A DNA stretch of 64,000 bases from a virus: UHGV virus genome UHGV-1362809, one strand, 5' to 3'. A model generated the notes under the pieces. The model saw nothing but the letters and a program-made list of their open reading frames with translations, searched no databases and was not told the DNA's origin. Made by a program: the position numbers and the translations under genes. Shown here one piece after another: positions 5,098 through 8,293 of this stretch (position 1 is the stretch's first letter; every line of letters starts with the position of its first letter).

Positions 5098-5721
5098 TTA
5101 TCGTACCTTGGTATTTGGTATGTCCAATTTAAAAGGAGGAGTACAAAAACTACCATCTTTTAGTTGTCTTTGTAGATACCAAGTTCCAACCCCATTATCG
5201 TCCAAGTATTTACGCATAACTAATAAGTCTTCTTTAGTTAATTTGTCATTAAGAGTTGTTCTTATTTCATAGCTTGGTACAGCTCTTACCAAAGGTAAGG
5301 AATTTTCAAAAATATCAAAATCTCTACCACACACTTGGACATACTTGTAGGATGGGGCTTTAAAGTCTAGCCCCACCCAATCACACAGCTTAATAATTTC
5401 ACCAAACTTTGGATTATTGCAGTTATAGCCAGTAGTATGTAGACCAACCAAAAAACCTAAGCTTTTTACATACTGGCACCAAGGTAACAAATCATTTATT
5501 TGATACATTGGTTCTCCACCGCTAAACACGATGGCATCTAATAATCCAACTCTACTTTCTAAAAAGTTACGTACTTCCTTCTCGTCTATACAGTCTGAAT
5601 ACAACAACTGCTTATTATAACAGTAATCGCAATTACAGGCACATCCTTTAAGAAATAAAACGCAACTAAATTTTGAAGGATAATTAACTGTACTGAATTT
5701 GTACAATCCACTAATTAGCAT
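5098..5721 (-). CDS. nrdG: anaerobic ribonucleotide reductase activating protein (radical SAM)
   Basis: FLKGCACNCDYCYNKQL (GC-x2-C-x2-CYN as in NrdG) and SGGEP; immediately downstream of nrdD. Confidence 0.8.
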   Translation of the reverse strand: MLISGLYKFSTVNYPSKFSCVLFLKGCACNCDYCYNKQLLYSDCIDEKEVRNFLESRVGLLDAIVFSGGEPMYQINDLLPWCQYVKSLGFLVGLHTTGYNCNNPKFGEIIKLCDWVGLDFKAPSYKYVQVCGRDFDIFENSLPLVRAVPSYEIRTTLNDKLTKEDLLVMRKYLDDNGVGTWYLQRQLKDGSFCTPPFKLDIPNTKVR

Positions 5722-7415
5722 TTACACTGTTCTCTTGTTAAAATTTCTTCATCACAAATAGGACAATATTTATGTTCCCCTGCAATATATCCGTGAACAG
5801 GACATATTGAAAAAGTAGGAGTCAAAGTCAAATAAGGAATTTTGTACTTCGTAAATACCTTTTTAACTATGCTCTTAGCCATTTCACCTGTAGGCAGTCG
5901 TTCACCTAAGAACATGTGGAAAACTGAACCACCCGTATATTTACGTTGTAGGTCTTCCTGTAGGTCCAAGGCTTCAAAAACGTCGTCCGTGTATTGAACG
6001 GGCAACTGGGAGCTGTTATTATAATAAACGTTGTCCCCTTCTCCTGCCTGAATAATATTTGCTCCAAACTGTTTTTTATCTTCTTTAGCAAATCTATAAC
6101 AAGTACCTTCTCCAGGAGTAGCTTCCAAGTTATACATATTACCAGTTTCTTGTTGAAATTCCAACAGTCTATTCCTAATATGGTCTAAAAATTGTTGCGC
6201 AAACTTTACACCCTCTTTTGAAGTAACGGATTCAAAATTAAAATTGCGCAACATTTCATTTATGCCATTAACCCCGATAGTAGAGAAATGATTTCTCCAT
6301 GTACCCAAATATCTTGAAGTGAAAGGATAAAAACCATTTTTTAGCTGAACGTCTAAAAACTTACGTTTAGCTTCTAAGGTCTTTTTAGCTAATTCTAACA
6401 AAACATCAAGTCTATAGTACAGATTCTCTACGTCACCTTTTGCTAAATATCCTAATCTAGCGCAGTTAATAGTAACAACCCCGATAGACCCTGTTTGTTC
6501 GGCGGAACCAAATAAACCATTACCTCTTTTTAACAATTCGTGTAAGTCTAGCTGAAGTCTACAGCACATACTACGAATCATATTTTCGTCGAGGTCAGAG
6601 TTCAAAAAGTTTTGGAAATAAGGTAAACCGTACTTAGCAGTTGCTTCCCATAAACCGTCCAGTTCGGGTTTATTCCAGTCGAAGGATTTTCCTATATTAA
6701 TAGTAGGAATTGGGAATGTGAAAATACGACCTTTTGCGTCCCCTTTGGACATTACTTCAAAATAGCATTGTACAAGAAGTAACATTTCTTCTTCAAGGTC
6801 ACCGTATAAAAATTCTCTGCCTTTGAAGAACTCAATATCACTAACGGGCTGACCACCAACTAATGGTTCTTGGTCTTTTAACTTTTCAGGGCATTTAATA
6901 TCAAAAGTAACATTCGTAAATGGTGTCTGAGAACCCCAACGAGAAGGAACATTTAGATTGAAAATAAATTCCTGCATCTGTTGCAAAACTAAGGTTTTTA
7001 ACTTTTTACCCACCCATTCTTTTTGTTTAGCAACATTTAGATAATTCGTATGATTCTCGTCATTTCCCCAGCAACATTCCTTATAATCGTCCTCCAATTC
7101 GTATCTTAGTTTACGAACAAAAGGAGCAAGGTAGGTATCGAAAGAGCTAAATGCCTGTGCTCCAGCAAATTCATTTTGCAACGCTCCGAGGAAATTAACC
7201 ATTTGACCGACAGCGGCACTTAGGTTTTTGGGTGGATTAGCATCTGTTTTACCTTGAATACCATTTAAACCTTCATTTAAAAGGGTGCGTAACGACCAAC
7301 CAGCGCAGTTGTGTACAAAAAGACCACAAGTTAAGGAAAAATTATGATATTTAGGAACTTCAATATCATATACGTCAGATAATTCCTGTACTTTTTCCAT
7401 AGATAAAATTTTCAT
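5715..7415 (-). CDS. nrdD: anaerobic ribonucleoside-triphosphate reductase NrdD, C-terminal fragment beginning with a 36-aa split-intein Int-C
   Basis: N-terminus MKILSMEKVQELSDVYDIEVPKYHNFSLTCGLFVHN then +1 Cys (CAGWSLRTLLNEGL). C-terminal CPVHGYIAGEHKYCPICDEE zinc ribbon typical of NrdD. Confidence 0.9.
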   Translation of the reverse strand: MKILSMEKVQELSDVYDIEVPKYHNFSLTCGLFVHNCAGWSLRTLLNEGLNGIQGKTDANPPKNLSAAVGQMVNFLGALQNEFAGAQAFSSFDTYLAPFVRKLRYELEDDYKECCWGNDENHTNYLNVAKQKEWVGKKLKTLVLQQMQEFIFNLNVPSRWGSQTPFTNVTFDIKCPEKLKDQEPLVGGQPVSDIEFFKGREFLYGDLEEEMLLLVQCYFEVMSKGDAKGRIFTFPIPTINIGKSFDWNKPELDGLWEATAKYGLPYFQNFLNSDLDENMIRSMCCRLQLDLHELLKRGNGLFGSAEQTGSIGVVTINCARLGYLAKGDVENLYYRLDVLLELAKKTLEAKRKFLDVQLKNGFYPFTSRYLGTWRNHFSTIGVNGINEMLRNFNFESVTSKEGVKFAQQFLDHIRNRLLEFQQETGNMYNLEATPGEGTCYRFAKEDKKQFGANIIQAGEGDNVYYNNSSQLPVQYTDDVFEALDLQEDLQRKYTGGSVFHMFLGERLPTGEMAKSIVKKVFTKYKIPYLTLTPTFSICPVHGYIAGEHKYCPICDEEILTREQCKC

Positions 7416-7771
7416 TTTTATTCCTATACTTATTTATCCTGTTAAAACATTTGTTTAAAATATTTTCTCTATTATAAACTCGCCAACTCATCATTTACGG
7501 TTAAGTCTTTAGCTTGCTTATAGGTACCGTCCTTCAACATAATTCTATGGTCGGGAGTACACTTTAACGTCTTACCATTATCTAAGTTTAATTGAACTAT
7601 CTCTCTATTTTTATAAGTGCATCTTGCATTAAAAGCTTCAGCGTCAACGGTGTTACCATTTTCGTCCTTTGCCAACACAGTAAACGTATTTTCCACACCT
7701 TTATCAGCCAATTCCTTAATGGTAATATCTCCATATTCTTTTGTCTTTATAAGTGTGTCTGGGGATAAACA
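7308..7771 (-). mobile_element. naturally split intein in nrdD (Int-N ~7475-7771, Int-C ~7308-7415, 56-nt spacer with RBS between halves)
   Basis: The Int-C sequence closely matches Npu DnaE Int-C (VYDIGVERDHNFALKNGFIASN vs VYDIEVPKYHNFSLTCGLFVHN). The extein sequences flanking the two halves align to the NrdD region after HxHDLD. Confidence 0.8.
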
Positions 7772-8293
7772 ATACCCTGAGAGTACATCTAAATCGTGGA
7801 TATGGAGGTCTCCATTTATGTGAGCATAAGCAGCATCTTCTGGGTATACATTATTCAACCAGTAGTTAGCAGTAATCTTACCACTTGAATTTAAAATCAT
7901 ACCACCTAAGGAATATGTTTGATTGGCATTAGCCTTAACACGCCAGTCTTGACGACCAACATATTCGTCTACCGTAGTTATAGGATCTATTTTTGTATCT
8001 CTTTTTAAAACTTTGTGTTTCGTTGCATAGGTTAAAAATTTTTCTGCAGTGTCTACAAAACCCAAACTAATAAGAGCCTTTGGTATTACACTATTAATGT
8101 CCACCGTTGTAGGAAACTTAACCTTAGCTTTTAATAGTTCTAAAACAGTAGAACATACTTCTTTCTTTTTATCCTCAAGAGTATGTTGCTCCTTAGTTCC
8201 ATTACTGGCTTTAAGTATCCCATTAAATAATAGGTCTTCACTAAATTCTACTAAGTTATTTTTTCTATTTAAGATTTTCATATTATTGTCCAT
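7472..8293 (-). CDS. nrdD: NrdD N-terminal fragment (ATP-cone and start of catalytic domain) ending in a ~99-aa split-intein Int-N
   Basis: NrdD extein ...GDLHIHDLDVLSGY followed by CLSPDTLIKT...TPDHRIMLKDGTYKQAKDL...DELASL (Hint block A/B, DnaE-Int-N-like), then stop. Confidence 0.9.
   Translation of the reverse strand: MDNNMKILNRKNNLVEFSEDLLFNGILKASNGTKEQHTLEDKKKEVCSTVLELLKAKVKFPTTVDINSVIPKALISLGFVDTAEKFLTYATKHKVLKRDTKIDPITTVDEYVGRQDWRVKANANQTYSLGGMILNSSGKITANYWLNNVYPEDAAYAHINGDLHIHDLDVLSGYCLSPDTLIKTKEYGDITIKELADKGVENTFTVLAKDENGNTVDAEAFNARCTYKNREIVQLNLDNGKTLKCTPDHRIMLKDGTYKQAKDLTVNDELASL

Follow-up and report, generated by a model that had tools for sequence, protein, structure and literature searches.

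Phage genes can be fractured by split inteins, whose two halves are encoded on separate polypeptides. Dassa et al. 2009 (PMC2677866) described 26 phage-type fractured-gene loci in eight enzyme types, which include the ribonucleotide reductase (RNR) proteins NrdA and NrdJ, with intein sites at the thiyl-radical site, but not NrdD; at one locus, gp41-7, there is no endonuclease between the halves. Other phage RNR genes tolerate mobile elements of different kinds, such as the group I intron of T4 nrdD (sunY) and mobE, which splits nrdA of Aeh1. Here we describe nrdD, the gene of the class III RNR, in a 64,000-nucleotide stretch of the UHGV virus genome UHGV-1362809 (the window, to which all coordinates refer unless another locus is named). 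We regard it as very probable that this gene, from an uncultured jumbo phage of ~235 kb, contains a functional, naturally split class-1 intein. As in the fractured genes of Dassa et al., a split intein interrupts a phage gene for an enzyme of DNA-precursor synthesis, and the two halves lie next to each other in their proper order. Phage RNR genes with split inteins, and adjacent halves with no endonuclease between them, are already known; NrdD as the host and this insertion site appear to be new.

A split intein in nrdD, of which an earlier sequence-only reading of the window knew no example, appears to be unreported in the literature searched, and Dwivedi et al. 2013 (PMC3653736) report none in nrdD. 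The nearest that this literature comes is the Jug-phage paper (PMC12880540), where fragmented nrdD genes and “Intein_splicing” proteins of gut jumbo phages are named without being analysed. The same reading held split inteins outside dnaE to be rare, a view that the loci listed by Dassa et al. have made outdated. Among GenBank phages, tblastn with the upstream nrdD piece returned NrdD or intein matches separately and no record with both. A word-indexed protein search with the fused intein gave just 3 matches. A scan of GTDB genomes with an Int-N alignment returned no NrdD exteins among its best 80 loci and is uninformative on cellular NrdD inteins; the 16 of these 80 loci that were read are GyrA or GyrB cis inteins, with one ambiguous.

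The reading-frame list shows four closely packed open reading frames (ORFs), all on the minus strand: nrdD-a, nrdD-b, nrdG and an ORF of 56 amino acids (aa) for a glycyl-radical domain. ORF a (7472..8293, 273 aa) starts with an N-extein (7772..8293, 174 aa) that comprises an ATP-cone and the first segment of the NrdD barrel and ends in ...HIHDLDVLSGY. The 99-aa Int-N follows (7475..7771; CLSPDTLIKT...TPDHRIML...DELASL), with Cys1 in block A and T-P-D-H in block B, and the ORF closes with a TAA stop (7472..7474). Its Pfam matches are, in order, ATP-cone (2.5e-8), NRDD (2.3e-12, profile positions 2-62) and Intein_splicing (9.5e-9, profile positions 10-93). Every relative begins at MKIL, so translation of ORF a may in fact begin only at its second ATG, position 8281 (MKIL...). 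Next comes a spacer of 56 nucleotides (nt; 7416..7471). An in-frame TAG stands in it directly after the TAA of piece a, a TAA in the frame of ORF b lies 21 nt upstream of the ATG of that ORF, and AGGA, a Shine-Dalgarno-like site, is found 7 nt ahead of the same ATG. ORF b (5715..7415, 566 aa) occupies a different reading frame from ORF a. It opens with the 36-aa Int-C (7308..7415; MKILSMEKVQELSDVYDIEVPKYHNFSLTCGLFVHN), which supplies the Asp of block F and the His-Asn of block G, and continues as a C-extein of 530 aa plus stop (5715..7307), whose first residue is Cys+1 (CAGWSLRTLL...). This NrdD body has a finger loop (SMCCRL) as well as a Zn ribbon (CPVH...CPIC) and terminates before the glycyl-radical loop; Pfam finds Intein in the first 36 residues of ORF b (6.8e-5, profile positions 122-155 of 155) and then NRDD (2.2e-147, profile positions 52-531).

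The remaining two ORFs complete the set. The ATG of nrdG (5098..5721) overlaps the stop of piece b, and its product is the cognate radical S-adenosylmethionine (SAM) activase of class III RNRs (Pfam Fer4_12 and Radical_SAM). Piece c of nrdD (4896..5066) encodes the 56-aa glycyl-radical domain (...EIWSRVMGYYRPRSQYNKGKTQE...) behind its own ribosome-binding site, AAGGAAG. A terminator-like hairpin with an 11-bp GC-rich stem and a T run (4864..4890, minus strand) closes the four-ORF operon; it is the sole terminator-like site of the group, and none was found between the four ORFs. The NRDD profile is thereby tiled by three ORFs, with positions 2-62 on a, 52-531 on b and 531-562 on c. The sequence-only reading had the ORF coordinates, the lengths and sequences of both intein halves and the 56-nt gap with its ribosome-binding site right. 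It also described nrdD as two ORFs: the a/b split stands, and the count of two pieces does not, the glycyl-radical domain being a third.

The intein halves, one with its own stop and the other with its own start, hold between them, together with the first extein residue after Int-C, every class-1 residue: Cys1, TxxH, the block F Asp, the penultimate His, the terminal Asn and Cys+1. Cys1 of CLSPDT directly follows the extein Tyr and is invariant in an alignment of nine sequences. The Thr and His of block B (TPDH) are invariant among split relatives, cis relatives and Npu DnaE, and so are, Npu DnaE included, the Asp, Asn and Cys+1 of blocks F and G (VYDIEV...HNF...FVHN/C); the penultimate His is retained in all NrdD inteins compared. 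When the fused halves were searched against the PDB with phmmer, the best match was the NrdJ-1 split intein (class II RNR, GOS metagenome, PDB 8ubs; E=1.4e-11). Inteins of Npu and Ssp DnaE scored between 1e-9 and 1e-6 (Npu DnaE 2.4e-9), all of these alignments extending end to end, from block A through block G, and this alignment bears out the earlier remark that the Int-C is close to that of Npu DnaE. An AlphaFold model of the joined halves (predicted local distance difference test, pLDDT, 89.9; predicted template-modelling score, pTM, 0.83) predicts a HINT domain. Its closest PDB folds in Foldseek are the DnaE inteins of Npu and Ssp, at the top, and NrdJ-1 (for NrdJ-1, TM 0.81, root-mean-square deviation 2.3 Å and 34% identity). 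Foldseek gave 72 PDB entries at E<=0.001, of which the best 50 are all either inteins or HINT domains of the intein-like (BIL) kind. The break between the halves corresponds to the variable linker of cis mini-inteins found at the same site, in the loop between blocks B and F where endonucleases are inserted, which is the canonical split position.

Among the closest described systems is NrdJ-1, likewise a phage-type split intein in an RNR catalytic subunit, with Cys1 and Cys+1, the canonical split point and halves of similar size. The two differ in the host protein, here class III NrdD and there class II NrdJ, and in the site, which lies before the reductive cysteine (T. maritima Cys125) and not at the thiyl-radical site as in NrdA and NrdJ. 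Moreover, an endonuclease gene separates the NrdJ-1 halves, whereas none does so in the window. The DnaE inteins are similar in the size of their halves (102 + 36 aa in Npu, 99 + 36 aa here) and in their Cys1, Asn and Cys+1 chemistry. They differ in layout, the DnaE halves being encoded at distant chromosomal loci and those of NrdD within one operon, 56 nt apart, and in the penultimate residue, a Ser in Npu against the His of the NrdD intein. Compact, with Cys1 and Cys+1, and kin to the well-behaved NrdJ-1 and DnaE inteins, the split intein of nrdD is a candidate engineering tool.

What the intein interrupts can be read from alleles that lack it. Close intein-less relatives (P0007 and P0134, and the IMG/VR loci L016 and L018) have an uninterrupted ...GYCAGWSL..., so that ligation is predicted to restore the native sequence. 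The joined exteins would form the contiguous NrdD region that the sequence-only reading expected, and the NRDD matches on both ORFs lie far above chance. In an alignment of the spliced product with T. maritima NrdD, Tyr-Cys+1 falls on Tyr124-Cys125. This cysteine (T4 Cys79, E. coli Cys175) is completely conserved in all RNRs and serves the reductive half-reaction (Aurelius et al. 2015, PMC4493059). The intein therefore occupies an essential catalytic residue, and the unspliced halves should be inactive. Inteins typically sit at essential catalytic residues. Other class III traits accompany the reductive Cys in the spliced product, namely the NRDD barrel and the finger-loop Cys; in an alignment with P0144, which is a contiguous NrdD, the SMCC/RL of piece b falls on the finger loop.

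From these features we infer that the NrdD halves are joined by trans-splicing, a need that the sequence-only reading had proposed and that is supported by the residues, the modelled fold, the split point, the junction, independent assemblies and signs of selection. In the mechanism that we propose, nrdD-a, nrdD-b, nrdG and the glycyl-radical mini-ORF would be transcribed as one unit, and pieces a (ATP-cone, first NrdD segment, Int-N) and b (Int-C, NrdD body) would be translated separately. Int-N and Int-C would then associate into a HINT fold, Cys1 would perform the N-S acyl shift, Cys+1 would attack the thioester and the terminal Asn of Int-C would cyclise, leaving the exteins joined as ...LSGY-CAGWSL.... 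The peptide across the ligated junction would read ...DLDVLSGYCAGWSLR..., and the product would be an NrdD of 704 aa. Because the glycyl-radical domain is on a third ORF, trans-splicing alone would not complete NrdD: the 704-aa protein would still be without the glycyl-radical loop, which the 56-aa product of the ORF after nrdG would supply non-covalently. Unlike in T4 nrdD, no group I intron is detectable, and the a/b junction would be repaired at the protein level by the intein. NrdD would in this way be added to the enzymes assembled by natural trans-splicing. As a weaker speculation, splicing through two cysteines might make the assembly of this oxygen-sensitive enzyme redox-dependent.

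The arrangement recurs in independent assemblies. Over 3.4 kb, the window is 98.3% identical to a 235-kb contig (ENA ERZ27271816) and 97.8% identical to a 45-kb contig (Logan SRR29134117). Both contigs, loci L004 and L005, have the same stops (TAA and TAG at the end of piece a) and the same 56-nt spacer, and the three sequences differ at 58-76 positions. Synonymous changes are well above non-synonymous ones in the exteins (8:1 and 21:4), in both intein halves (6 synonymous and 1 non-synonymous for Int-N against L004) and in nrdG. The spacer differs at three positions and evolves faster than the coding parts (3/59 positions), and piece c is without any difference between the window, L004 and L005. 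The substitutions indicate purifying selection on the coding parts, and the split is, on the strength of these sequences, real and heritable and not an assembly error.

Several observations weigh against a functional split intein and were set against the evidence above. The case for splicing is one of sequence and predicted structure, and the substitution counts are small. Against the gathering score of Pfam Intein_splicing (PF14890), 35.8 bits, Int-N scores 35.7 and Int-C 23.1, as is expected of half-domains. The opposite-charge complementarity of DnaE halves was sought in the two halves and is absent, with net charges of -3 for Int-N and -2 for Int-C versus -11 and +3 in Npu. Association of the halves may therefore depend on contacts other than charge. 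There is little chance, in our judgement, that nrdD is a decaying gene, broken by a mobile element, with an inactive enzyme and intein halves that are mere relics, even though it comes in three pieces, selfish elements abound around it and phage RNR genes that appear to be degenerating have been described (Dwivedi et al. 2013, PMC3653736). Relics would not be expected to show the excess of synonymous changes just described, and all splicing and NrdD catalytic residues are kept across lineages only 31-60% identical; in addition, the glycyl-radical core is near-invariant and every piece has its own ribosome-binding site. Slightly less probable still is that the intein halves hold the NrdD fragments together without splicing. 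Such reassembly of unspliced RNR subunits has a precedent in the intein-less split NrdA of Aeh1 (cited in PMC2677866), and the third piece must bind non-covalently in any case. Docking, however, needs neither Cys1 nor TxxH, His-Asn or Cys+1, all of which are kept in the NrdD inteins compared, and it would leave a 135-aa HINT domain right on the active-site Cys.

The spacer gives rise to two further explanations. Ribosomes might bypass or read through it, as in T4 gene 60, and so make a cis-intein precursor. Its 56 nt come near the 50-nt gap of gene 60, and the paper on that bypass element deals with phage genes split by endonuclease insertion. Yet the ORFs lie in different frames, the spacer holds two successive stops in frame a and one in frame b, relatives have a gene of ~1 kb at the same place, and Int-C has its own ATG with an SD-like site. 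An Rfam scan of the spacer and of the surroundings of nrdG returned chance-level matches only, with no group I intron and no other RNA element. We consider such recoding most improbable. Alternatively, faulty sequencing or assembly might have made an ordinary cis mini-intein look split. Cis mini-inteins do occur at exactly the same site (P0012-P0015, P0144), and the sequence-only reading had itself raised the possibility of a sequencing artefact in the gap. Against this, the stops and spacer length are common to three independent sequences, two of them assemblies ~98% identical to the window, and at least five other lineages end their N-half a few residues from the same point, which brings the likelihood of an artefact close to nil. 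Misassembly of a cis mini-intein, a pseudogene and translational bypass were all rejected on the evidence given.

A functional split intein in nrdD is also what the relatives of the window would lead one to expect. Grouped at 50% identity, the sequences with the same split make up at least six clusters. Five more clusters, defined at 90% identity (P0002-P0006) and 56-60% identical to the window, have an N-half that ends a few residues from the same point, and the same N-half ending is seen in the remoter lineages P0137, P0277, P0136, P0255 and P0275 (31-53% identical). Every split relative with a readable contig has a free-standing ORF between the halves, as in the fractured genes of Dassa et al. 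In L001-L003, L006 and L012-L014 this ORF is 323-333 aa long, matches DUF723 weakly and resembles Vsr/DUF559 at its C-terminus (...EFYGDYFHGN...VWE), and PHROGs annotates its product as an endonuclease. L038 has a DUF7487 protein there (PHROGs “homing endonuclease”), and the pig-gut contigs L036 and L037 have an ORF of 341 aa that is without a Pfam match and whose N-terminus, read by eye, looks GIY-YIG-like. Three different endonuclease families are thus found between split halves at one site. Cis inteins occupy the same site elsewhere: mini-inteins in P0012-P0015, P0069, P0144, P0150 and P0157, and in L007 an intein whose splicing regions flank an HNH-type insert, seen in translation.

In the window lineage only, the endonuclease gene between the halves is missing and the 56 nt stand in its place, a state with a precedent in gp41-7. 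The gene would have been lost from this lineage. At the syntenic position, the spacer resembles the final ~66 nt of the endonuclease regions in L006 (z=3.4, p=0.0055) and in L013 (z=4.1, p=0.0005), both judged by dinucleotide shuffles; as a point to the contrary, neither the endonuclease gene of L001 nor that of L012 resembles it significantly. On evidence of moderate strength, a homing-endonuclease gene was probably deleted here, with its 3' end left behind in the spacer. Unlike at the loci of Dassa et al., the endonuclease-less state can here be compared with endonuclease-bearing, cis and intein-less alleles of one site. This one site shows all stages of the proposed origin of split inteins, namely intein-less, cis mini-intein, cis with HNH, split with an endonuclease, and split with the endonuclease deleted and a probable remnant left behind, and the allelic series makes the model of Dassa et al. 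testable by comparison and reconstruction.

As a target of inteins, nrdD is a hotspot. In P0144 one cis mini-intein lies at site a, where the nrdD of the window is split, and another at the finger loop. In L013 (3875..5440) nrdD is fractured at two sites, with a second split intein 40 residues on, after ...MVNFLG and before C; the free-standing endonuclease gene at this second site matches Pfam NUMOD3 and, weakly, SegE_GIY-YIG, and its N-terminus was read as GIY-YIG-like. L037 (385..6263, pig gut metagenome) combines the site-a split intein with apparently three cis inteins in its C-half, one of them at the finger-loop cysteine.

We now turn to the third piece. ORF b stops 12 residues past the CPIC of its Zn ribbon, and the glycyl-radical loop is not on it. 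It aligns with P0144 through residue 942 (CPKC), and the 56-aa ORF after nrdG is 63% identical to residues 948-974 of the same protein and matches positions 531-562 of 562 of the Pfam NRDD profile. The b/c break shows no intein motifs. The core of piece c, EIWSRVMGY.RPRSQYNKGKTQE, is near-invariant in 11 homologs with variable flanks, the ORF follows nrdG in all relatives read, intein-less ones included, and its AAGGAAG ribosome-binding site is strong. A phmmer search of the 56-aa ORF against the PDB gave no match, the query being too short. We infer from these sequences that the 56-aa protein is a separate radical-bearing subunit that acts in trans; counting against this, the case for trans action comes from conservation and gene order only. 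A class III RNR built from three polypeptides, with trans-splicing at the reductive cysteine and a detachable 56-aa glycyl-radical subunit that is first activated and then docks into a loop-less barrel, is accordingly put forward as a tentative model, to which we give somewhat less than an even chance. The separate glycyl-radical domain suggests a two-component class III RNR, of which no description was found in the literature searched. The proposed association of b and c would resemble the non-covalent reassembly of Aeh1 NrdA.

GrcA (YfiD) and T4 Y06I are reportedly autonomous glycyl-radical proteins that repair pyruvate formate-lyase (PFL). The 56-aa protein is like them a small stand-alone protein with only a glycyl-radical loop. 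It is unlike GrcA in being of the NrdD type and not of the PFL type, and the large subunit here is itself loop-less, so that the 56-aa protein would be obligatory and not a spare part. NrdD-type glycyl-radical mini-ORFs also occur in 21 diverse IMG/VR viral contigs, in stop-to-stop frames of 65-163 codons; the match lies near 4001-4170 in most of the loci L015, L017 and L019-L035, and the four mini-ORFs tested all match Pfam NRDD 530-562. Within the ~4 kb around the mini-ORF, tblastn found no nrdD or nrdG in 19 of the 21 loci. Like GrcA, such stand-alone radical mini-proteins might act as spare parts with which host NrdD is re-armed after cleavage by oxygen. The mini-ORF of the window has a weak match to one PHROG family of unknown function and to no other.

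The same window holds a second split intein, and inside it lies a homolog (E=4e-15) of the endonuclease found between the nrdD halves of relatives. This second fractured gene (17982..21399, minus strand) encodes a ResIII/DEAD helicase split by intein halves. The N-half with its Int-N (20377..21399, minus strand) and the C-half, which begins with the Int-C (...LISHN/T; 17982..19379, minus strand), enclose the Vsr-like free-standing endonuclease gene (19373..20416, minus strand) to which that homology applies. The helicase is a single unbroken ORF in the relatives L001, L002 and L006. A DUF7487 ORF adjoins it in the window (16718..17962, minus strand). Members of this family, for which PHROGs gives “homing endonuclease”, behave like free-standing genes that move: in L004 a copy (3177..4427) has dnaB on one side and the SAM synthetase gene on the other, and neither L005 nor the window has it at that spot.

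As to the wider genome, the G+C content of the window is 34-35%, and its family A DNA polymerase is ~30% identical to those of jumbo phages of the PaBG/Lu11 type. A megablast of the 4-kb region against GenBank phages (50,697 records) gave no match, and there is no close relative among them. Elsewhere in the window, a RecA-like protein of 938 aa (30221..33037, minus strand) is interrupted by a cis intein that includes a LAGLIDADG endonuclease domain; its Pfam matches are RecA, LAGLIDADG_3 and, weakly, Intein_splicing. A QueC-amidotransferase fusion of the 7-deazaguanine pathway (40621..42102, minus strand) and a eukaryotic-type topoisomerase IB (61629..63344, plus strand) were also found. Downstream of the operon, L004 and L005 have several N6/N4 DNA methyltransferases and also an MT-A70 methyltransferase, which is split into two ORFs in L004 (13139..13709) and intact in L005.

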